Assembly: GCF_041886205.1 (NCBI RefSeq)
Contig: NZ_CP169029.1
Strand: one strand, 5' to 3'
DNA: 64,000 nt
Source of the DNA: Escherichia coli
GTDB lineage: Bacteria > Pseudomonadota > Gammaproteobacteria > Enterobacterales > Enterobacteriaceae
Part shown: positions 29,560 through 64,000 of the stretch, piece after piece
How the letters are laid out: each line of letters opens with the position of its first letter
Position numbering within the stretch: position 1 is the first letter of the stretch
Made by a program: the position numbers and the translations under genes
Notes under the pieces: generated by a model
The model's database searches: none
What the model was told of the DNA's origin: nothing
Seen by the model: only the letters and a program-made list of their open reading frames with translations

Positions 29560-29807
29560 TATTTATTCTCCAGCCATGGAAGTAGAGCTTCCATTAATTG
29601 CGCAGGGGTTTTGACATCCAGCAGAATATTAATAGGAATGGAAATATCGAATCTGTCTTCCAGCATCATTAAGAGATCCATCACTTTGATCGACTCCAGG
29701 CCAAGATCGTTGACGAGATCGCTGTCGGGCTTAATTTCCACACCGTTTTCGACCAAATCCTGTAAACAGGAAAGGATGTAATCCATTACTATTTCACGAT
29801 TTACCAT
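29559..29807 (-). CDS. Dedicated acyl carrier protein
   Basis: 82 aa, acidic, with a phosphopantetheine-site-like DLGLESIKVMDLLMMLEDRFD. Its stop overlaps the synthase start. Confidence 0.75.
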   Translation of the reverse strand: MVNREIVMDYILSCLQDLVENGVEIKPDSDLVNDLGLESIKVMDLLMMLEDRFDISIPINILLDVKTPAQLMEALLPWLENK

Positions 29808-34061: not shown

Positions 34062-34832
34062 TCACATTCCCACCTTGTTCATCTCCAGCGGCACCGCCGA
34101 GCGAATCAAATGGTGGCCTTCCAGCTCGATATCGTGGAGATTCTTTTTCACGGTCCGCACATGATCGCGTGCTGCGCGCTGGGCGACGTGCGGCAGCCGC
34201 TGCAACACCGCGTTGTAGATCCGCGCATGCTGGCGATCGATCTGCTTTTTTTGCTGTGGTCGATGGTAGAGATTATTTACGCTGGCAAACACTGAATTAA
34301 ACATCAGATCGGTCAATGATTGCAGCGTAAACACCAGCACCTGATTGTGAGAAGCCTGACAAATGGCGAGATGGAAAGCGTGATCCAACTGAGCATGTTC
34401 GATCAGCGAAATCTCTTTGTTGTTCTCACTGGCGGCGAGCATTTTTTCATAACAGCGGGTTATCACAACAAAATCAGCCTGGGTTCCCAGCGTTGCCGCA
34501 AGCCTTGCCGATTCGCCCTCCAGCAATGCGCGAACGTCGAGCAGATCGTACAGCGTTCGCGGCTGCGTGCTGAACAGATGAATTAGCGGGCTGGTGTCCT
34601 GCACCCGATTAAGCCGTGCGACACGAGAATCGCGACCCTGCGCTGTTTCAATAATCCCGCGCCCGCGCAGCACGGTCAGTCCTTCACGCAGTGCGGAGCG
34701 TGAGAAGCCGAGCTTTTCACACAGTCGACGTTCCGAGGGAAGCGGCTGACCGACCTTCAGTACGCCGTCGATAATTAACCGTTCGATACTCTCTGCAACC
34801 ACTTCGCAAATAGGGCGACGTTCATCTTTCAT
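34062..34832 (-). CDS. glcC: GntR/FadR-family glycolate regulator GlcC
   Basis: Start at the internal Met MKDERRPICEVVAESIERLIIDGVLKVGQPLPSERRLCEKLGFSRSALREGL (winged HTH) of ORF 34062-34901. Confidence 0.85.
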   Translation of the reverse strand: MKDERRPICEVVAESIERLIIDGVLKVGQPLPSERRLCEKLGFSRSALREGLTVLRGRGIIETAQGRDSRVARLNRVQDTSPLIHLFSTQPRTLYDLLDVRALLEGESARLAATLGTQADFVVITRCYEKMLAASENNKEISLIEHAQLDHAFHLAICQASHNQVLVFTLQSLTDLMFNSVFASVNNLYHRPQQKKQIDRQHARIYNAVLQRLPHVAQRAARDHVRTVKKNLHDIELEGHHLIRSAVPLEMNKVGM

Positions 34833-54239: not shown

Positions 54240-54614
54240 TTATGAGGTGGTTGCGGGTGTCTGTGCCGGATAAACAGCCAGATAAACGTAACCACAGGAG
54301 CCGAGGGTGTCGGCTTCGCAGGTCTGCCCTTTTGCATACAGCGTGACGGTATGCTGATTTCGGGGATTCAGTTCACCGCTGGTGAGCATGAGCTCCAGTT
54401 GTTTCATCAGCAGCGGAAAGGCCTGGTCCAGATGGTATGCATCTGCGTCGCTGAAGCGGCCTCTGATACCGGCGCGGTCGGCAAGGTAATGCAGGCGGTT
54501 ACCCTCCTGCACCAGACGGGCACCAAAACAGGGCCTCACTGTGCAGGGAAGCCCCCACCAGGGGCGGTCGTGATTGTCGTCGGGATGAGTTATCCCGGAG
54601 AGTTTGTCTGACAC
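54240..54614 (-). CDS. cbeA: CbeA/YeeU-family type IV antitoxin
   Basis: [52 protein letters not shown]…, YeeU/YfjZ/YafW family; GTG start. Confidence 0.85.
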
Positions 54615-54776
54615 GATAAAATCCTCTCTGAAAAGTGGTTAAGAATGGTTTAACGATGACAGGTCAGCCGGCGCGCTGACCGGTTTCGGTGAAGATGTAT
54701 GCATTGACAAGAATGGCCTCATCCACAGCGGCGTCTGAGTCCATCTGGTCGTACTCGTTTTCCGGGTGACGGAACA

Positions 54777-54998
54777 TCAGTTCAGGGTGACGCTCATCAG
54801 CCGGACATACGGGCCAAAACTGTCCTTATGGCGTTCAGCAAACACGGCCAGCACACCGGGAATATCCTGCACTTCACGACCGGTATACGCTTCAGTGCTG
54901 CCGTGCCAGCGGTATTTGCCGGTACAGAAAGGAAAAAGACGGGATGCCGGATGTTGTTGGTGAATACGCATGGCTTCACCACGGGTGATGATTTTCAT
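54777..54998 (-). CDS. yeeT: YeeT/YpjJ-like small protein (DUF987)
   Basis: 73 aa, MKIITRGEAMRIHQQHPASRLFPFCTGKYRWHG…. Confidence 0.75.
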   Translation of the reverse strand: MKIITRGEAMRIHQQHPASRLFPFCTGKYRWHGSTEAYTGREVQDIPGVLAVFAERHKDSFGPYVRLMSVTLN

Positions 54999-55060
54999 AG
55001 TGGGATACCTCTGAAGACAGAAGATAAAAGTGAAAACAGGTGTGATGTGGTTGTGACGGG

Positions 55061-55552
55061 TTAAAGCAGACCATGTTCGGCAAAGGAGAAAACCTGGTTG
55101 CCACCGACTATCAGATGGTCCGGCACCCGGATATCCACCAGGGCCAGTGCCTGTACCAGACGTTCGGTGATAAGCCGGTCTGCCTTACTGGGTGTGACTT
55201 CACCGGACGGGTGATTGTGTGCCAGCACCACGGCAGCGGCATTGTGATACAGGGCGCGTTTAATCACTTCCCGGGGATGGACTTCCGTGCGGTTGATGGT
55301 GCCGGTGAAGAGGGTTTCACCGGCAATCAGCTGATTCTGGTTGTTCAGATACAGCACCCGGAACTCTTCACGCTCCAGTCCCGCCATGTTCAGAATCAGC
55401 CATTCTCGTGCCGCACGGGTGGAGGTGAAGGCCACGCCGGGTTCATGAAGATGGCGGTCCAGGGTTTTCAGGGCCCGTTGAATGAGACTGCGCTCGCCGG
55501 GCGTCATTTCTCCGGGCAGAAAGGAAAGCTGCTGCATTGTCCCTGCCTCCAT
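55061..55552 (-). CDS. yeeS: RadC-like JAB-domain protein (YeeS/YfjY/YkfG family)
   Basis: JAMM-like HNHPSG motif (…AHNHPSGEVTPSKAD…); 163 aa. Confidence 0.8.
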   Translation of the reverse strand: MEAGTMQQLSFLPGEMTPGERSLIQRALKTLDRHLHEPGVAFTSTRAAREWLILNMAGLEREEFRVLYLNNQNQLIAGETLFTGTINRTEVHPREVIKRALYHNAAAVVLAHNHPSGEVTPSKADRLITERLVQALALVDIRVPDHLIVGGNQVFSFAEHGLL

Positions 55553-56038
55553 TCAGTCGATGATGCGCATAATGGCGCTGCATTCCGGATGCTGCAGGGC
55601 GTAATCCCGCAGCCGGTAATAATGGACCGTCATGGCATAACACTCCGTACGACAGGCGTGATGACTGTACGTCATCAGACAGGCAGCAATGCCGGCGGCT
55701 TCCGGGCTCATTTCAGCGCGGTTGCCGTTCATGGCATTGAACAGTACCCATGTTTCGTCATCATCGTCATCCGGTTCGGGGGCCATAAATGCCCCGCCGT
55801 TGTTCAGAGTGTACAGATTCCAGATACCACCGCAGTAGTCTTCGCACAGACGGTCCATCCAGCCGAAAACACGGGGCTCCAGGGTCACCCACTGTGGAAT
55901 GAGGCCAAAATGCTGCGGCCAGAAGCTGATGCGCTGTTCATCAGGGACTATGGTGGCAACCAACTGAGGCTGGTCATTCCCTGATGCAGCGGTTACGGAA
56001 ACAGAAGATGTGGTGGAATTATGTGAAATGGTTTTCAT
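55553..56038 (-). CDS. Antirestriction protein, KlcA/ArdB family (YfjX-like)
   Basis: 161 aa with the acidic stretch EPDDDDDETW and surrounding sequence resembling YfjX/YeeR-neighbour antirestriction proteins. Confidence 0.7.
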   Translation of the reverse strand: MKTISHNSTTSSVSVTAASGNDQPQLVATIVPDEQRISFWPQHFGLIPQWVTLEPRVFGWMDRLCEDYCGGIWNLYTLNNGGAFMAPEPDDDDDETWVLFNAMNGNRAEMSPEAAGIAACLMTYSHHACRTECYAMTVHYYRLRDYALQHPECSAIMRIID

Positions 56039-56092
56039 GAAATGACTCCTTAAAGGACAAATAAATGCGTGGTTTTCAGGGTAATGGCTGAA

Positions 56093-56911
56093 TCAGCGCA
56101 GGCTCTCCAGCAGGGTTTCCGCCATCACCCACAATGCGCGGTTGAGCTTAATGTCAGTGTCAATGCTGTGAATGGCACGGGTATGGATACGTTTTCCTTT
56201 AGCGCTGCGACCTGAAATTCCGCCTTTCAGCATATTCTCCTGAATGGTCTGATAAGCACTCCACAGGTCCTTACCGTAATCCTCCCGGCGTCGTGGCGTC
56301 AGAATGTCGGCGGTGGTGACGGGCTGATGTTCGTCACCATAACGGTAAGTCAGTGCCGCCTGTGCCAGCGCCTGGCGTGCCGGTGGCGGCAGAATCAGCG
56401 ACTGCATGGCATCACGCTTTTCCTCAATCCGGTCAAAAACCCCCACCACCTCGTAAGCCCCTTCAATGACTCTGTCCACCACATTTCCCCGGTGCGGAAC
56501 ACGCACTTCCCCCAGAGACTGACCACAGACGCATCCGTTCTGGCAGACGAACCTGAAGTAACCCGGCAGCATCTGGTAGCTGGAGGTACCGTCATGAGAG
56601 TTGAGCAGAATAATTTCAGGGACATGTTCTCCGTTTATCTCTCCGGCCCGCCGCAGACGCAGCATGTGTTTTGTGTATCCCCGGCGGCCCGGGTCGCGCA
56701 CACGGGTCTGGCAGGCGAAGAATGGCTGAAAGCCTTCCCGCTGCAGGCTTTCCAGTACGGTGATGGTGGGGATGTACGTATAGTTCTGGCTTCGGGACGT
56801 GTGTTTATCTTCCCCGAAAATCCCCGGCACATAGTGCATCAGTTCTTTGTGTGTCAGCGGACGGTCACGGCGTATCTGGTTCGCATAACCAAAACGACTG
56901 GCTAGTCGCAT
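56093..56911 (-). CDS. DUF932-family protein (YfjQ/YafZ-like)
   Basis: 272 aa, MRLASRFGYANQIRRDRPLTHKELMHYVPGIFGEDKHTSRSQNYTYIPT…; a family that recurs in CP4-type islands. Confidence 0.65.
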   Translation of the reverse strand: MRLASRFGYANQIRRDRPLTHKELMHYVPGIFGEDKHTSRSQNYTYIPTITVLESLQREGFQPFFACQTRVRDPGRRGYTKHMLRLRRAGEINGEHVPEIILLNSHDGTSSYQMLPGYFRFVCQNGCVCGQSLGEVRVPHRGNVVDRVIEGAYEVVGVFDRIEEKRDAMQSLILPPPARQALAQAALTYRYGDEHQPVTTADILTPRRREDYGKDLWSAYQTIQENMLKGGISGRSAKGKRIHTRAIHSIDTDIKLNRALWVMAETLLESLR

Positions 56912-57010
56912 AATTTGCTCCTTATCGGTGGTTAAGATTTACTGGTGTAATAAATGAAAAAGCCACGTCTCCCGGAGAAGACGCGGCCTGATGGGTGAAA
57001 TGAATGACGT

Positions 57011-57244
57011 TTATTGTCTGAGAAGACCGTCACTGGCGAGCCGCGTATTAAGCACCTTTCCGGCATCGGGTTCAGAATTCCGGCAGCACCAGCGTCGCTG
57101 ACCTTCCGCGTTGCGGATAACCCGACGGAAATGCATTCCCGGGTCATCCTGGATAAACACATTGCGGTAAGCGGTTATGACAGCAACCGCCTGCCCGTAT
57201 GAGAAAGATCCTTCAGCCAGGACATACTCTGTGTAACCCGGCAT
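57011..57244 (-). CDS. Small hypothetical protein
   Basis: 77-aa ORF in the island gene string, same strand as its neighbours. Confidence 0.35.
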
Positions 57245-57322
57245 ATCGGTTTTCTCCTGATAAATAAAAAGCCTCTGCCACGCGTTGTGACAGAGGCTGA
57301 AGCATGAAACTGACTTCAGGGA

Positions 57323-57778
57323 TCAGTTAACGTTTTTTCCGGAAACGGTAATCAGCAGTGGATGGTAGTCCTGGGGATTGAAAACCGATAACGGCAGACT
57401 GACACGATGGCCGTTACTTTCTTCAGTTGCTTTAATGATTTCGGTTGTGGCGACATTTTCCACGCACTCCGTTTCCAGAAATGCGTCTGTGGTTCGCGTG
57501 GCATTACTGTCACCAAAAGCTTCCGTTTCCATTTTTCTGGTCACCAGCGTCTGACCATATTTGTCTTTGAGTTGCAGAGTGATGGTGAGGGGGCCAAATC
57601 CTTCATCGTTTCCGCCATTATCCAGCCGGAACTGGTAAGCACAAATATTTCCCGGGAGCCATATCCTATCTGTATTGCGTATACTGATGTAACGTTGATC
57701 CTGTGCCCGGAGTGGGGCAGACCACGTTAACCCCAGAATGAAGGCGGTAATCATGCAGGTTTTGAACAGGTGAATCAT
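57323..57778 (-). CDS. Hypothetical secreted protein (signal peptide)
   Basis: 151 aa with an N-terminal hydrophobic signal ending …WSAPLRAQD. Confidence 0.5.
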   Translation of the reverse strand: MIHLFKTCMITAFILGLTWSAPLRAQDQRYISIRNTDRIWLPGNICAYQFRLDNGGNDEGFGPLTITLQLKDKYGQTLVTRKMETEAFGDSNATRTTDAFLETECVENVATTEIIKATEESNGHRVSLPLSVFNPQDYHPLLITVSGKNVN

Positions 57779-57853: not shown

Positions 57854-60376
57854 TTATGCCGGTAACTCCGGGGGTAATGCTTCTTCCAGTCGGTTAACCA
57901 TATTGCCGAGATGGGATGCATCATATTCCATGACGGGGCGTTGCCTGATGATACTGACCACCAGTGGTTTGATTAACATATTGGTCGCGGCCCGTTGTTG
58001 TATACCGGCGGCGAAAATGATCTCCAGAGCATTCTGATCGATAACACGGGCCAGATTCTCGTTCAGATTTTCAATCTCATGTCCGGTCAGCAGGAAACTG
58101 CCGGCAAGCCATGTCACCTGCTCCTGAATCATTGCCAGAATTTTGACGCGATCTTCTTCAACCAGCGCTCCGGCAATTTTTCCTGATACAGCGGAGGCAA
58201 TCATTCCCCCCAGAACACCGCCAACCACACGCCCTGTCAGTGCACCAAATGGTCCCAGTGGACTGAACAGTATCCCGCCCGCCACTGACCCGACAGCTCC
58301 ACCTGCCACACCGGAAGATGCCACGGCAAGATTCCTGATGAACTGCGTACCGGAGATCCGTCCCCGCAACATTTTGATCATGTCAGGGCCGGTTGTGACA
58401 GCTACCAGTGCCAGAGATGTCACCAGCGTACCCTTCATCACTTTGTTCAGGGCACTGATATTTCCTGCACCGGTCCCCTTCTGAAGAGCCAGTCGGACAG
58501 TCGGGCTGGCAGTCGAAAAATCAATGTGCTTCAGCATACCCTGAACAACACTGAGCCGGTGGAGTTGCTGGGTTGTGACGTAGACAGCCAGTGTGCGGGT
58601 GAAGGTTTTTCCTGCCTGGACAGCAGCTGTCTGCAGGGCAGCATCGCGATCGCCGGTGCTGAGCCAGAAGACCGATGCCGTCAGGGCAAAACTGATCCCT
58701 CCGGCCGCCAGACTGACAACCGAACCCTCGGCAATATCATAAGTGACCGATTCGATGGTCCCGAACCGGGTGATATTACGGGCCTGAGTATAAGTCAGAT
58801 GTCCCCGACGAATCAGCCGGGACGCTTCTGCGGGATCGGTTACACCGGGTACTTTACCTTCGCGGATCTTATTCCTCATGGTTTCAACAGCGCCGGCATA
58901 CTGATCACGGGGGACTTCCAGTTGCATGGGGCCATTATTTCCCATGTAACGATACTGTCCGTTTTGTCCGTCGAATGCCGCACCGACGCTACGGGCTGCA
59001 GTTGAACAATATTTCGTCTGGATTTCTGTTCCGCTGACCAGTCTGTCTGCTCCATTTCTGGCATTATTATCACCGAGGATCCGTGCGTTTTTCAGACGGA
59101 CTCTGTCGACAATATGGTTTCCCCGTTCAGCGGCAAACCCATGTCCCTGCCCTCCGGAAGCAAACATTTTCTCATTTGTACTCCAGGTTTCCGGCAGTTT
59201 CATGAGAATCAGACCATTCGCCGTTGCATCGGAAATAAAGCTGTTGTAAGGGCGTTCATAAATTTCCTGACACAGTGTTTCTGTTTCGCGACAAAGAGAG
59301 GAGCAGTACCATTCCGGATCCGGCTTATGATTTTCCGGGGCATGATGTACTTCTGTCAGCCCGCAGGAGGCACAGATACGAAGCTCATCCACGTGATGGA
59401 ATGATACAAAACGGCGACCTTCTGAAAAGGGATACCAGTCACCGCCGTCCAGGCAACGATCGAGAAAATCGTCATTCGCTTCCGGTGATAAATTCAGGCG
59501 GTTCCGGAAGAGCGTTTTCAGTTCATCAGGTGTGAATGACAGGTTCTCTTTCAACTGTTCGTTAAACCCTGCCATGTTTCTTTCATACCAGGCATTGTTC
59601 AGTAACCAGTTTCCGTCTGCCAGTTCAAATTCCCTCAGCTCTCCCCGGGAAATCCGTTGAGAAATGAGCGTCAGCCAGATGCGCTCCGTCAGTGAGTCAG
59701 GAAGGCTGTAATCGTTTTGCAAACTGGTCAGCCACGATTTACTGTTGAGCACCGGTTGTTCTTCCAGTGTCTGGCTGATGGCACAGGTCAGTTTTTTCAG
59801 CGCCTGGATCTGGCTGGCCGCCCATAGCAGCGTCACTAATGCAGCCAGCCAGTACAACAACCCGCCCCACCACATCAGTGACGGTGAAATATCGTACTGT
59901 AACGCGATCAATGGTGCGCATGCAGAACACGCCATAAGGAAAAAGGCAGTATAAAAACAGCAGTAATACCCGTTAATTTCCTTGCTGATATCTTCTGGTG
60001 TGATCCCGTTCTGCTGAATGTTTTTGATCTGCAGGGGAACAGCCAGCAGACCACCGGCGAGAGCGGTGGTCAGAATAAATTTCACAGAGTCAAAGGTGTG
60101 AGCCTCCAGCGCGATATGTTTACCATCAAGTCCCCACATGAAGCTGATGATCATTCCGGCAATCGTCAGAAATACGCCTGCCAGCCAGCGAATATGGAAC
60201 AACCGGGTTATGCGTTCGGTGATATAGCCAGCCAGTAAGGCCGGGCCGAACAGACACAGCAATATGAGCCCTGCCAGCGCAGAAGCCGTGCTGATTAATG
60301 CTCTGAACAAAAGGCGAAGAATGGCAAATCCTGCGATCAGCAGGATCAGCGCGCCGACTATCTGTAACATAGTCAC
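57854..60376 (-). CDS. yeeR: YeeR-like large inner membrane protein
   Basis: 840 aa: N-terminal transmembrane helices, a Cys-containing central region (…CASCGLTEVHH…WYCSSLC…), and a C-terminal Gly/Ala-rich glycine-zipper-like segment (GGAVGSVAGGILFSPLGPFGALTGRVVGGVLGG). The N-terminus matches YeeR of CP4-44. Confidence 0.7.
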   Translation of the reverse strand: MTMLQIVGALILLIAGFAILRLLFRALISTASALAGLILLCLFGPALLAGYITERITRLFHIRWLAGVFLTIAGMIISFMWGLDGKHIALEAHTFDSVKFILTTALAGGLLAVPLQIKNIQQNGITPEDISKEINGYYCCFYTAFFLMACSACAPLIALQYDISPSLMWWGGLLYWLAALVTLLWAASQIQALKKLTCAISQTLEEQPVLNSKSWLTSLQNDYSLPDSLTERIWLTLISQRISRGELREFELADGNWLLNNAWYERNMAGFNEQLKENLSFTPDELKTLFRNRLNLSPEANDDFLDRCLDGGDWYPFSEGRRFVSFHHVDELRICASCGLTEVHHAPENHKPDPEWYCSSLCRETETLCQEIYERPYNSFISDATANGLILMKLPETWSTNEKMFASGGQGHGFAAERGNHIVDRVRLKNARILGDNNARNGADRLVSGTEIQTKYCSTAARSVGAAFDGQNGQYRYMGNNGPMQLEVPRDQYAGAVETMRNKIREGKVPGVTDPAEASRLIRRGHLTYTQARNITRFGTIESVTYDIAEGSVVSLAAGGISFALTASVFWLSTGDRDAALQTAAVQAGKTFTRTLAVYVTTQQLHRLSVVQGMLKHIDFSTASPTVRLALQKGTGAGNISALNKVMKGTLVTSLALVAVTTGPDMIKMLRGRISGTQFIRNLAVASSGVAGGAVGSVAGGILFSPLGPFGALTGRVVGGVLGGMIASAVSGKIAGALVEEDRVKILAMIQEQVTWLAGSFLLTGHEIENLNENLARVIDQNALEIIFAAGIQQRAATNMLIKPLVVSIIRQRPVMEYDASHLGNMVNRLEEALPPELPA

Positions 60377-60490: not shown

Positions 60491-63400
60491 TCAGAAGGTC
60501 ACATTCAGCGTGGCCTGACCGTTATAGCCTTCAGCGCTGCTGCCGCTGACGCTGTGGACATAACCTGCCTGAACGCCCAGGGTGATATTTTCCCGGACAC
60601 GGGCTTCCAGTCCGGCCTGCAGGTCCAGTGACGTACCATTCTGTGACGGTGAGAACGTCATGTTACTGCCGGCTGCGGCTGTACCCATGCTCATGTCCCC
60701 CCGGGAGCTGAAGGTGCGGATAACAGAAGGCTGTACCCACCAGTTCACCGGCAGTTCACGCACACTGTGTTTGGCACTGCCGCGCAGGGTGTCACGGGAT
60801 GAGGTGCCTTTACCAAAGTTCATATCGTGGTGGCTGCCCAGACGGAAGCCGGCACGCACATGTTGTGCACTGCCATGCCCGAACTTCACATAACCGGCGT
60901 TGTCCTTACCGTCATCCAGGGAAAGTCCCTGCCAGGTATACTGCAGTTGTGGCTCCAGCATCAGGTTGTCAGTGATACTGAAGGGCAGACCGGTTTCCAG
61001 TGAACCCAGCCAGCCCCAACCCCGGGCGCGGAAGTCGTTATTGTCCGTTGACGCTTTCATGCTGTGGCGGGTTCCCAGGGCCACAATGTCAGCCCACAGT
61101 CCGGAGGCGTTGTGTATCAGATTCAGGTATCCGCCCAGGCTGCCGGCATCATCCCGGACCGTGCCGGCACGGGAGCCGTCATCATCCTTAACATCAACGG
61201 AAGAATGGCCAGCAGCACCATATATCCCCGCGGTCACAGACATACCGGCAACCTCTGTTCTCATCAGGTCACCCTCCAGACGGACGAATCCATAGCTGCC
61301 GCTGCTTTCCGGCGTGGCCCCACGGGCAATACCGCCGTTGTTATCGTGACCGAGATGGCCGCCCTGAATGCTGAGACGGACGCTGTTATTTTCACCGTTT
61401 ACACCGGTCTGATGGCTGCGTGAGCCTGCCAGAATCCGGTCATAGTCCATTGCCTGTGTCAGCATGGAGGCATACAGGGGGACTTCTGCACGATAAGCAT
61501 TTTCACTGCGCAGATACCAGCTCTCATCACTGTCCCGGTTGAGGGAGTAGTTAAAGGCACCGGCCTGCAGCTTATTCCCCTGGATAAAGGCCCCTTCCTC
61601 CGTGGTGGCACCGTTAATGGCTTCCACCACCTGAATACCCTTACCGCTGGTCGCCAGCCCCGACGCACTGTTGCCGGCGTTCACCAGGTTCAGGATGGTT
61701 TTTCCGGTTGCCCTGCCACCGTCAATGACCAGTCTGTCAGCATTGTTCTGTGCCATATCCGGGCGTACACGCAGGCTGATGGTGCCATTCTGTCCGTTCA
61801 GGTTTTTCACTTTCAGGGTTGCCGGTACGAACTTCCCTGTGCGGGTGGAGGTGAAATGAATCTGTCCGGCATGGCTGAGGTCATCCACCACCGACTGCAC
61901 CGTGGCGTTATCGGGAATATTCCAGGTGGCACCAGAGGCGAGAGTGACATTCGTGGGGTCAATGGCACCGTTCAGCACAGTGCTGCCGGTCAGCTTCAGG
62001 GCTGTACCGCGCTGAGCAATGACATCCGTGGTGACGGTACTGTCGTTCAGCGTCAGCGTGCCTTCATTCAGGTTGACGGCTTTCTGGGTGAGTGTGGTGT
62101 TGCTGACAGTGAGTGTGCCACTTCCTGATTTTTCCACGCTGCCGTTACCGGTGAGAGAGCCTCCCTGCAGGAGTGCATCGCCTTCACGGATGGTCAGGGT
62201 ATCGTTGTTCACCGTCTTCCCGGAAAGGGTAAGTATGGCGCCGTTATTCAGCGTGGTGGTGCCCGCCAGTGTGCCGCCCCTGGCGGTGAACAGTCCGCCA
62301 TTTACCGTGGTATCCGTGGCCGTATCACCGGCGTTCAGCGTGAATGAACTGCCTTTTTCCAGCATCAGGGCATCCGCCTGACCACCTCCGATACTGAATG
62401 CCTTTCCGTCGCTCCGGGTACCACTGACAGCGGCACCGGAATCGGCCAGCAGTACACCGCCATTTCCCATGGATACGGTGGTGGCGGTGCCACCGTTGCG
62501 GACATCCAGCGTTCCGCCATCATCCACGCGGGTATTAGTGGCTGTGTGTCCGGTCAGCACATCCAGGCGTCCGCCATTTTCCAGTACGACATTATCAGCT
62601 TTACCCTCCACAACAGAGAATGCTCCCAGGCGGTTTATGCCGGTAACGGTTGCAGCCGTACTGGTAACCAGTGCGCCGCCCTGCTTCAGGGTGACATTCG
62701 TGGCTGTACCACCGGCGTCCACCTGCAGTCTGCCCTTCTGATTAACGGTGGTATTCCCGGCCACACCCCCGTTTTTGACAATCTGCCAGCCGTCACTGTT
62801 TACAACAGTGCCAGACGCCGTACCGCCGTTGTGCACATACTGGTACCCCCCATTCAGCGTGGTATCCAGTGCGTGACCATGTACAGTCTGGTCGCCGCCG
62901 GCATAAACCACAGTGGTATTTGCCGTTCCTTCAGCAGCCACAATCTGACGACCATTTTTATTGATGGTGGTGCGTACGGCATCTCCGTAGACGGTCTGCC
63001 CGGTATCACCATTTTCCGCATCCGGTCCCCCTTCCGCGCCGGTATTCACAACCGTGTCGGTTGCCACTGCGCCGGATTTGATGGCCTGCCAGCCCTTCTC
63101 ATTAATGACGGTACCCGTTGCAATCCCGCCTTCATGTACCCACTGCTCACCGCCGTTCAGAGTGGTGTTCACTGCCTGCCCCTGAAGGCTCTGTCCGCCT
63201 CCGGCACTGATAACCGTGTCTGAAACGCTTCCTCCGGCATTCACTCTCTGAAGACCACCACCGGTGACAGTAGTGTTGTTGGCGATACCGCCATTTTGTA
63301 TCCATTGTCCGCCGGTATTGGCCTCGTTATCCGGCCCATACTCCAGACCGGTACTGATGGTCATTCCGTTGGCCGTACCGAGGACAATCTGGTTGTCATG

Positions 63401-63610
63401 ATTTGTCAGTGTTCCGTCGTTCACGGTTTCTCCCGCCTGTACAACCTTGTCAGCAGCCAGTGCCGGGACTGATGTGACAGCAGCAAGAGACAGCGCAACC
63501 GCCACACCGGCGCCTTTTCCCCGTGAGCGGGCCAGTTCGGAGGCCACCACCAGGGTGCCCGTAATGTGATTCCATACCAGCCTGTAGCTGGTGTTCAGAT
63601 GTCGTTTCAT
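60491..63610 (-). CDS. flu: Antigen 43 self-associating autotransporter adhesin
   Basis: MKRHLNTSYRLVWNHITGTLVVASELARSRGKG… extended signal peptide, repetitive beta-helical passenger, C-terminal beta-barrel ending …GYNGQATLNVTF. Start at the internal Met of ORF 60491-63685. Confidence 0.95.
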   Translation of the reverse strand: MKRHLNTSYRLVWNHITGTLVVASELARSRGKGAGVAVALSLAAVTSVPALAADKVVQAGETVNDGTLTNHDNQIVLGTANGMTISTGLEYGPDNEANTGGQWIQNGGIANNTTVTGGGLQRVNAGGSVSDTVISAGGGQSLQGQAVNTTLNGGEQWVHEGGIATGTVINEKGWQAIKSGAVATDTVVNTGAEGGPDAENGDTGQTVYGDAVRTTINKNGRQIVAAEGTANTTVVYAGGDQTVHGHALDTTLNGGYQYVHNGGTASGTVVNSDGWQIVKNGGVAGNTTVNQKGRLQVDAGGTATNVTLKQGGALVTSTAATVTGINRLGAFSVVEGKADNVVLENGGRLDVLTGHTATNTRVDDGGTLDVRNGGTATTVSMGNGGVLLADSGAAVSGTRSDGKAFSIGGGQADALMLEKGSSFTLNAGDTATDTTVNGGLFTARGGTLAGTTTLNNGAILTLSGKTVNNDTLTIREGDALLQGGSLTGNGSVEKSGSGTLTVSNTTLTQKAVNLNEGTLTLNDSTVTTDVIAQRGTALKLTGSTVLNGAIDPTNVTLASGATWNIPDNATVQSVVDDLSHAGQIHFTSTRTGKFVPATLKVKNLNGQNGTISLRVRPDMAQNNADRLVIDGGRATGKTILNLVNAGNSASGLATSGKGIQVVEAINGATTEEGAFIQGNKLQAGAFNYSLNRDSDESWYLRSENAYRAEVPLYASMLTQAMDYDRILAGSRSHQTGVNGENNSVRLSIQGGHLGHDNNGGIARGATPESSGSYGFVRLEGDLMRTEVAGMSVTAGIYGAAGHSSVDVKDDDGSRAGTVRDDAGSLGGYLNLIHNASGLWADIVALGTRHSMKASTDNNDFRARGWGWLGSLETGLPFSITDNLMLEPQLQYTWQGLSLDDGKDNAGYVKFGHGSAQHVRAGFRLGSHHDMNFGKGTSSRDTLRGSAKHSVRELPVNWWVQPSVIRTFSSRGDMSMGTAAAGSNMTFSPSQNGTSLDLQAGLEARVRENITLGVQAGYVHSVSGSSAEGYNGQATLNVTF

Positions 63611-63819
63611 CAGCTTTTCCTTACAGAGGGTGAATAAAAAAGCCGGTACCCACAAATGTGGATACCGGCAGGTACAAAACAGCATGGTCAGATAAAGTGG
63701 TTTTTCCCGGACATAAATGCTTCCCCTCTCTCATCCGCCAGAGAAGTATCAGTCCGTTGTGTGCAATTCCGTTCTGCATGATGAAGAGATTCAGCTGCCT
63801 TTTCGCAGACCATTAACCA

Positions 63820-63870
63820 CTATAAACGATCGATAGTAACGATCGATACCTGTTTTATCGATCGTTTTAT
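63820..63870 (-). promoter_or_regulatory. agn43 phase-variation switch: three GATC (Dam) sites in the OxyR-binding region
   Basis: GATC at 63827, 63840 and 63859 within aaacGATCgatagtaacGATCgatacctgttttatcGATCgtttt, about 220-250 bp upstream of the flu start. Confidence 0.7.
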
Positions 63871-64000
63871 TCTATTGACAGCAAAGCGGTCACGCAAGAG
63901 AAACAGGAGGGGGATGAGGGGTTTGTGTCATGTTTTCAGTTGGTTAACGCAATGTAATCAGGCATTTCCCCTGGCAGAGTGTTCAGAAGAAAATCCAGTT

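Follow-up and report, generated by a model that had tools for sequence, protein, structure and literature searches.

The stretch of Escherichia coli DNA considered here (the window, 64,000 nt in all) very probably carries an intact agn43 (flu) locus under the classical Dam/OxyR epigenetic phase switch, a reading to which we assign a probability of roughly 0.88. The locus is a textbook case of Ag43 with its known switch, and both the protein and the promoter already occur in public genomes, among thousands of sequenced strains. What can be read directly from the DNA is that the sequence is intact, that its elements sit at homologous positions, that the operator matches, and in which order the genes follow. 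A sequence-only reading had proposed that this strain can probably phase-vary, and the GATC alignment, the intact operator, and the complete coding sequence all support this predicted capacity.

The agn43 coding sequence occupies positions 60491-63610 on the minus strand and specifies 1039 aa plus the stop codon, as judged from ORF, domain, and alignment evidence. Counted from the internal Met at 63610, the frame contains zero stops, and a ribosome-binding motif, AAGGAA, lies 6 nt 5' of this ATG. The ORF as listed is larger (60491-63685, minus strand, 1064 aa); the extension from the ATG at 63685 was rejected as non-coding, as its frame varies among alleles and homologues are annotated from MKRHLN. 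The protein is divided into a signal peptide (residues 1-52, 63610-63455), an alpha passenger (residues 53-551, 63454-61958), and a beta module (residues 552-1039, 61957-60494), all on the minus strand.

All four autotransporter modules are detected by the Pfam search: the ESPR (PF13018) at residues 6-52 with E = 1.2e-13, five stretches of AIDA repeats (PF16168) in the passenger, the type 1 autochaperone AC_1 (PF18883) at residues 573-690, and the C-terminal translocator, or Autotransporter beta-domain (PF03797), at residues 766-1015. Against the NCBIfam Ag43/Cah equivalog NF033177, the protein reaches 1894.5 bits, above the cutoff of 1200, and the best match among solved structures is the Ag43a passenger 4KH3 (residues 52-551, E = 1.4e-237). 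The earlier description of a full-length, 1039-aa autotransporter starting at the internal Met is borne out by the stop-free frame, the complete set of modules, and this family score. D551/P552, the alpha/beta cleavage site of K-12 Ag43, is kept: NGAIDPTNV is the same as in K-12 in an ungapped protein alignment. On these matches, the product is assigned to the Ag43/Cah self-associating autotransporters of the type Va secretion pathway, and self-association and aggregation are themselves predicted properties.

Upstream of the gene, three GATC sites, the targets of Dam, are arranged as expected for the switch. Beyond position 63000, GATC is present only at 63828, 63841, and 63860 (plus-strand starts). 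GATC-I (63860-63863) includes the predicted transcription start, the G at 63863; GATC-II (63841-63844) lies 19 bp past it, and GATC-III (63828-63831) a further 13 bp past GATC-II, so that the spacing is 13 then 19 on the plus strand and 19 then 13 along transcription. Their distances from the agn43 ATG are 253, 234, and 221 nt, respectively, in agreement with the sequence-only reading, which had placed three GATCs with 13 and 19 bp spacing about 220-250 bp upstream. Relative to the -10 hexamer, the sites stand at +11, +30, and +43, as they do in K-12, CFT073 agn43a and agn43b, O157:H7 cah, O104:H4, and seven further alleles; the arrangement is the same in all 12 that were compared. The correct alignment of these alleles is ungapped and anchored on the -10 block. 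A MAFFT alignment of the upstream region was discarded: it displaced the window sequence against that of K-12 by one GATC and opened gaps, giving a false impression of an altered arrangement. The same reading had named, as the finding that would count against it, a GATC cluster that failed to align with the characterized agn43 site; in the ungapped, -10-anchored alignment with K-12, the cluster does align.

A sigma-70 promoter is predicted alongside the GATC sites. Its -10 hexamer, TAGAAT (63869-63874, minus strand), is part of a 17-nt block, AATAGAATAAAACGATC, identical in K-12 and invariant across the 12 alleles. The -35 hexamer, TTGCGT (63892-63897, minus strand), is placed by its sequence and by its K-12 position, with a 17-nt spacer to the -10; it matches the consensus at 3/6 positions, compared with 4/6 for the K-12 hexamer TTGTCC at the same aligned position, and the TCTCTTG flanking it is conserved with respect to K-12 in the anchored alignment. 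A generic promoter scan of 63400-64000 flagged no promoter, because the -35 is only 3/6 to consensus. As for the predicted start, the annotated start of K-12 IsrC is the G homologous to that of GATC-I (63863). The start mapped in EC958, 228 nt upstream of the ATG, may correspond to the 228-nt leader of the CFT073 agn43a type.

An OxyR-type operator (63875-63829) takes in the -10 hexamer and the predicted +1 as well as the three GATCs. Half-site 1, ATAGAATAAAACGAT (63861-63875, minus strand), matches the consensus ATAGnTnnnAnCTAT at 8/10 positions and overlaps the -10 and GATC-I; half-site 2, ATCGTTACTATCGAT (63829-63843, minus strand), also scores 8/10 and has GATC-II and GATC-III at its edges. 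The two are 32 bp apart, centre to centre, the spacing that is canonical for reduced OxyR (PMC4856963). With this extended motif the operator reaches 16/20, and the next best site on either strand of the 64 kb reaches 12/20. The score of 16/20 is kept in 12/12 alleles, with variation only in the inter-half-site spacer and at the "nnn" positions of the consensus: half-site 1 is invariant in all 12, and half-site 2 varies only at positions 7-9, which are the consensus "nnn". The compact register, with a 7-nt spacer, behaves differently. Here the agn43 site scores 13/20, a value that is also reached by 6 further sites of the window, and the compact register that gives 14/20 in K-12 gives about 10/20 in the window allele by hand count; between GATC-I and GATC-II the window allele has AACA, K-12 CTAT. 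As the compact consensus does not single out this site within the window, the register with a 17-nt spacer was adopted instead, and we infer that this register is the one contacted by OxyR. What both leader families (see below) strictly conserve is the pair of OxyR half-sites at their 32-bp spacing, and not the GATC-I/GATC-II interval.

Between the predicted start and the ATG lies a 253-nt leader (63611-63863, minus strand), which is IsrC/IS102-like. The Rfam model RF00124 (IS102/IsrC) matches 63629-63865 on the minus strand with 74.6 bits, against a gathering threshold of 46, and E = 1e-11; the match is full length (model positions 1-206 of 206) and begins 2 nt before GATC-I. Just 5' of the ribosome-binding site is a terminator-like hairpin followed by a T-run (63632-63669, minus strand; 12-pair stem within 63669-63642). 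According to the terminator scan and Rfam, this hairpin is the closing helix of the RF00124 model and is kept in both leader families. Leader ORFs of 8, 37, 41, and 52 codons were set aside as non-coding, their frames being indel-shifted among alleles and some entering agn43. The 253-nt leader belongs to a different family from that of K-12 and CFT073, and it is the commoner of the two: at a query coverage of at least 80%, it is found in at least 3444 of 5426 complete E. coli genomes (∼63%). The well-studied K-12/CFT073 regulatory region belongs to the minority leader family.

Downstream, agn43 is followed on the same strand by yeeR (57854-60370), an ORF annotated as YeeR family in a 99.5% identical locus, and by irmA (57323-57778, 151 aa), which is intact, comes third in the operon, and has counterparts in homologous loci that carry an IrmA family annotation. 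The exact YeeR protein is found on 1000 contigs or more, and the exact IrmA protein is also in public data. As Pfam and NCBIfam searches gave no match for YeeR, IrmA, or the small island proteins, these identities are taken from the RefSeq annotation of near-identical loci. No terminator-like site was found between agn43 and yeeR or elsewhere inside the operon; the sole one is a hairpin about 25 nt past the irmA stop (57270-57298, minus strand), with a 12-pair stem including 7 GC pairs and then TTTTATTTAT, and it is the likely operon end. In EC958 and CFT073, agn43-yeeR-irmA is co-transcribed and OxyR-repressed, as established by RT-PCR and Western blot (PMC4807369). From its gene order, agn43 heads this known operon, which is intact here and presumably co-transcribed. 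The leader family, the IS102/IsrC match with its hairpin, and the operon did not figure in the sequence-only reading.

How would such a locus operate? In the agn43 literature, Dam activates and OxyR represses, and a dam mutant stays locked OFF; the dam and oxyR genes themselves lie outside the 64-kb window. OxyR binding, methylation sensitivity, start site, leader termination, co-transcription, and phenotype are here predicted from the DNA and from these precedents. Transcription from the sigma-70 promoter (63897-63869) would begin at or near the GATC-I G (63863). In the OFF state, reduced OxyR would be bound to the unmethylated GATCs and exclude both RNA polymerase and Dam; in the ON state, Dam methylation after replication would prevent OxyR from binding, and either state would be heritable. 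The ON transcripts would carry the 253-nt IsrC/IS102-like leader with its hairpin just before the ribosome-binding site, so that they might end there as a short RNA or continue through agn43-yeeR-irmA, in which case they would end at the hairpin past irmA. Ag43 would then be exported by the type Va route and cleaved at D551/P552, leading to cell-cell clumping.

Might the three GATCs have clustered by chance and play no part in regulation? Counting alone offers this idea some room: seven triplets within 36 bp are observed in the window, against 2.4 expected by random placement, and at least one arises in 89% of random placements. Clustering statistics do not separate this site from chance, and they were dropped as an argument. 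The homology evidence refutes the idea, whose probability is vanishingly small. The agn43 cluster alone is non-coding, the other four being in coding sequence (three inside long open frames, and the one at 29675-29720, read by eye, in an acyl-carrier-like gene); its 13/19 geometry is found once in the window, with the exact K-12 spacing and offsets. It also falls inside the top OxyR motif of the window, is covered by the RF00124 match, and shows no change in 12 alleles whose flanks diverge. It is homology, not clustering, that marks the triplet as non-chance.

Another question is whether the switch, although present, behaves differently in the 253-nt leader family, with a strong bias towards ON or OFF or even an effective lock. 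The 17-bp spacer between the half-sites is divergent (7/15 identical to K-12, with CTAT lost), which could alter OxyR affinity or DNA bending, and the weaker -35 could change promoter strength. The opvAB work argues that ON/OFF bias is set by half-site quality. All consensus-specified half-site positions are identical to those of K-12, and OxyR binding in the extended mode makes no contact with the spacer. The alleles confirmed as experimentally tested, K-12 and CFT073 agn43b (the latter via IrmA), both have the other leader family, and nothing specific was found in the literature on Dam/OxyR or methylome experiments with a cah-type or 253-nt-leader allele. Because the 17-bp spacer and about 150 nt of leader differ from those of the tested alleles, switching rates are not simply transferable. 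Nevertheless, the spacer is invariant save for one substitution in eight alleles of the same family, and this conservation, together with the prevalence of the family among complete genomes, argues for a maintained, working element. An altered switch is judged quite unlikely. The broader proposal that the majority leader/operator family, through its spacer, its -35, and a central leader that is largely unrelated, is functionally unlike the K-12/CFT073 type, with different ON/OFF rates and its own IsrC-like short RNA acting on its own targets, is likewise rather improbable.

It may also be that switching is normal and yet no phase-variable aggregation or biofilm phenotype follows, owing to masking by capsule, fimbriae, or long O-antigen, to the dominance of other agn43 copies, or to termination of most transcripts in the leader. 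Ag43 phenotypes are strongly background-dependent (PMC3764049; PMC6668479), E. coli genomes have a median of 2 agn43-like places and up to 12, and the hairpin between promoter and start codon is a strong terminator-like one. K-12 has the same hairpin, yet it expresses and phase-varies Ag43, and the content of the window is silent on surface shielding. This outcome is considered unlikely, and the classical Dam/OxyR switch over an intact agn43 remains the preferred reading.

The strain is hence predicted to be able to form Ag43-ON and Ag43-OFF subpopulations. With yeeR and irmA both intact further along the operon, it can probably also phase-vary IrmA, a secreted cytokine-receptor mimic. These points bear on the choice of colonies for work on aggregation, biofilms, and vaccine antigens; otherwise they add little beyond annotation.

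Among known alleles, the exact Ag43 protein is UniParc UPI00028D4863, deposited as "autotransporter adhesin Ag43" and found on 14 contigs. The relatives in complete genomes, EC19 and USDA-ARS-USMARC-49610, are identical over residues 53-551 and differ at a few residues of the signal peptide and beta-domain, and their DNA is 99.0-99.1% identical over 3.6 kb; no complete RefSeq genome reaches 100% over this length. USDA-ARS-USMARC-49610 has the same island module, adjoining yghD. The K-12 flu/agn43 (b2000) product is equal in length, 1039 aa, and 95% identical without gaps; identity is 83-93% across the signal peptide and N-terminal passenger, and the window protein has Y in place of R208 of the K-12 RGD motif. 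K-12 shares the -10/+1 block, the GATC offsets and spacing, half-site 1, every consensus-specified position of both half-sites, the terminal leader hairpin, and the ribosome-binding site. It differs at two "n" positions of half-site 2 and in its 222-nt leader, of which about 150 nt are unalignable with the 253-nt one; in addition, its yeeR is truncated and irmA is absent, whereas both are intact in the window.

The O157:H7 cah and O104:H4 Ag43/Cah alleles share the leader family of the window, at 252-253 nt, and its operator. The Cah signal peptide is 98% identical to that of the window Ag43, but Cah has 949 aa and a class C2 passenger, with 24-67% identity over residues 301-700. CFT073 agn43a (PDB 4KH3) and agn43b follow the same domain plan and switch geometry, and their operon order is that of EC958 and the window; they differ in their K-12-type leaders (228 and 224 nt) and in their class C3 passengers, for which identity over residues 53-300 is 63-70%.

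A wider comparison is offered by Salmonella gtr and opvAB, where, as in agn43, the half-sites are spaced for reduced OxyR and the GATCs are within the half-sites or at their edges; in gtr, GATC pairs with a 13-bp spacing flank half-sites (PMC2909390). In these systems, alternative OxyR sites lie upstream of the promoter and activation is possible, whereas in agn43 a single repressor site covers the -10/+1, and the sequence homology between them is limited to the OxyR motif.

The three GATC sites upstream of agn43 are the only ones past position 63000 of the window. Numbered in the direction of transcription (minus strand), they lie at 63860-63863 (GATC-I), 63841-63844 (GATC-II) and 63828-63831 (GATC-III), spaced by 19 and then 13 bp, and their distances to the agn43 ATG are 253, 234 and 221 nt, so that the sequence-only reading was right to place such a triplet some 220-250 bp upstream of the start. 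Is a cluster of this kind telling in itself? When the window's 256 GATCs were placed at random and triplets within 36 bp were counted, 2.4 were expected on average versus 7 observed, and clustering by itself is weak evidence. The remaining clusters lie in coding sequence. Four other dense ones (29675-29720, 46030-46072, 34218-34242 and 16774-16813) have three or four sites per 21-42 bp; long open frames hold three of the four, the first looks, on the minus strand, like a coding sequence of the acyl-carrier-protein type, and a motif scan of the 64-kb window detected an agn43-operator-like OxyR site at none of them.

It is homology, not clustering, that settles the triplet as the agn43 switch. 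The comparison with the K-12 agn43 regulatory region proposed in the sequence-only reading was run as an ungapped alignment anchored on a 17-nt block, AATAGAATAAAACGATC, which is the same in K-12, and all three GATCs fall on exact K-12 positions. (A MAFFT alignment of the region was off register by one GATC, and was replaced by this -10-anchored one.) Counted from the T of TAGAAT, the offsets of +11, +30 and +43 recur in K-12, CFT073 agn43a and agn43b, O157:H7 cah, O104:H4 and seven further alleles.

A second question is where OxyR would contact this region. The consensus half-site, ATAGnTnnnAnCTAT, was scored in two arrangements. With a compact 7-nt spacer no distinctive OxyR site was found in the window, the top score of 13/20 being common to seven sites; the best compact register of K-12 reaches 14/20, and there the window allele lacks the CTAT that K-12 has between GATC-I and GATC-II. 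When the spacer is set to 17 nt (half-sites 32 bp apart, centre to centre), 63875-63829 on the minus strand scores 16/20, and the runner-up on both strands of the 64 kb scores 12/20. Half-site 1, ATAGAATAAAACGAT, overlaps the -10 element and GATC-I, and half-site 2, ATCGTTACTATCGAT, has GATC-II and GATC-III at its two edges. The score is 16/20 in all 12 alleles, among which variation is confined to the 17-bp spacer and to positions 7-9 of half-site 2 ("nnn" in the consensus). This pattern is what one would expect if purifying selection acted on an OxyR operator with the 17-nt spacer, the register that we infer to be contacted.

As for the promoter, the -10 element TAGAAT (63874-63869, minus strand) is that of K-12, while the -35 element TTGCGT (63897-63892, minus strand), 17 nt away, is weaker than the K-12 TTGTCC and fell under the threshold of a generic promoter scan. 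The start is placed at 63863, for a predicted leader of 253 nt, because IsrC, the K-12 agn43 leader RNA, is annotated from the G of GATC-I. In EC958, mapping put the agn43-yeeR-irmA transcript start 228 bp ahead of the start codon (PMC4807369); the GATC-I-to-ATG distance of the CFT073 agn43a-type leader is also 228, and by this match the mapped start is consistent with one at GATC-I. Further upstream, 63983-64000 holds the 3' end of a YeeP-like GTPase-family gene on the same strand (stop TGA 63985-63983, ∼85 nt before the -35). Because no terminator-like site was detected between this gene and the -35, its transcription could conceivably run on into the switch region.

The leader is a layer absent from the sequence-only reading. 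Over its full model, Rfam RF00124 (IS102 RNA, as the IsrC family is named) hits 63629-63865 at 74.6 bits (gathering score 46). The match closes with a 12-pair GC-rich hairpin and then TTTTTTATT (63669-63632), and the terminator scan places the hairpin ∼20 nt upstream of the start codon. The leaders of E. coli agn43 genes fall into two families, largely unalignable (window 63611-63930 versus L001:1760-2039, the sequence used for this comparison): only the 47-bp operator and the terminal hairpin/ribosome-binding site are common to both, and the ∼150 nt from operator to hairpin do not align. At ≥80% query coverage, the 253-nt family occurs in at least 3444 of 5426 complete E. coli genomes, and the K-12-type leader in 1832. 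The alleles confirmed as characterised, K-12 and CFT073, belong to the latter; a literature search for a Dam/OxyR experiment on a 253-nt-leader allele found none, and promoters, GATC sites and OxyR go unmentioned in a genome-wide study of Ag43 variants from 2023. The short ORFs that precede agn43 within the leader probably do not encode proteins, their frames varying among alleles. Control at the agn43 leader RNA is reportedly the subject of a 2014 paper, going by its title in a citation.

The coding sequence is complete. The open frame at 60491-63685 (minus strand) spans 1064 aa; within it, the ATG at 63610, preceded by AAGGAA, is the biologically meaningful start. The 1039-aa protein from this Met has zero stops and all Pfam autotransporter parts, in agreement with the full-length product first proposed: an ESPR signal peptide (residues 6-52), five AIDA repeats, a type 1 autochaperone (573-690) and a beta-barrel translocator (766-1015). 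It scores 1894.5 bits against the NCBIfam Ag43/Cah equivalog (cutoff 1200), and is 95% identical to K-12 Flu, gapless across all 1039 residues and without a difference at 301-660. D551/P552, which we take from K-12 Ag43 to be the cleavage site, is kept, and the top solved-structure match, the CFT073 Ag43a passenger (4KH3), spans residues 52-551. At residue 208 (62987-62989) the K-12 passenger RGD (R208-G-D) is YGD; the beta-domain RGD (970-972) is kept. Taken region by region, the protein has a K-12-like passenger (class C1 as defined in PMC6668479) and a signal peptide that shares 98% identity with its counterpart in O157:H7 Cah; it is a mosaic of a type already described for the family. An identical protein is public ("autotransporter adhesin Ag43 [Escherichia coli]", 14 contigs), and many complete genomes match the 3.6-kb locus at 99.0-99.1% identity.

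Downstream on the minus strand are intact yeeR (57854-60370, 838 aa) and irmA (57323-57778, 151 aa). The terminator scan found no terminator-like site among the three genes, and a strong one lies ∼25 nt past irmA. This is the agn43-yeeR-irmA operon, with co-transcription predicted by homology. The switch probably also gates IrmA, because in UPEC these genes are co-transcribed and OxyR-repressed (PMC4807369).

The operon stands at the end of a CP4-44-like island, whose accessory module (53122-57244, minus strand) follows irmA with ORFs of the expected sizes. Named from near-identical annotated loci, its genes encode DUF905, DUF932, an antirestriction protein, a RadC/JAB protein, YeeT (DUF987), a YeeU/CbeA-CbtA type IV toxin-antitoxin pair, DUF5983 and DUF957. 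The module ends at an IS110-family transposase (51662-52666, minus strand, 334 aa; NF033542, E = 6e-105), adjoined by a 96-aa ORF (52735-53025, minus strand) at a site occupied in related islands by a DUF4942 gene; in strain ZYB39 this site holds a truncated DUF4942 beside an IS110-like element. Transposase and ORF appear to delimit the island. The stretch from glcA to the island end contains a complete type I Wadjet anti-plasmid system (43920-50605, plus strand; JetA 498, JetB 254, JetC 1095 and JetD 394 aa; PADLOC E-values 1e-116 to 0), at a position where other strains have the gsp/yghJ type II secretion locus; in CFIAFB20190167 this Jet system is degraded (internal stop in jetA, deletion in jetC). 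The first 25 kb of the window are core E. coli chromosome, 100% identical to one sequenced strain.

For this locus, sequence integrity, geometry, operator match and gene order are established. By the mechanism summarised in the literature, in the OFF state reduced OxyR on the unmethylated operator would occlude the -10 and +1 and shield the GATCs from Dam; in the ON state, GATC methylation after replication would keep OxyR out. Both states would be heritable, and ON transcripts would either stop at the leader hairpin or continue into agn43-yeeR-irmA. OxyR binding, methylation sensitivity, start site, termination, co-transcription and phenotype are all expected from homologous loci. The intact Dam/OxyR switch first read from the sequence is supported by the K-12 geometry, the operator match and the complete coding sequence, with its function attributed by homology.

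Features of this arrangement recur in related systems. The 32-bp spacing is called canonical for reduced OxyR at opvAB, and agn43 regulation is stated to be independent of OxyR oxidation state (PMC4856963); gtr, like agn43, has two GATCs at a distance of 13 bp inside one half-site (PMC2909390). What this locus holds is a textbook system, here as a very common allele, and as such already known.
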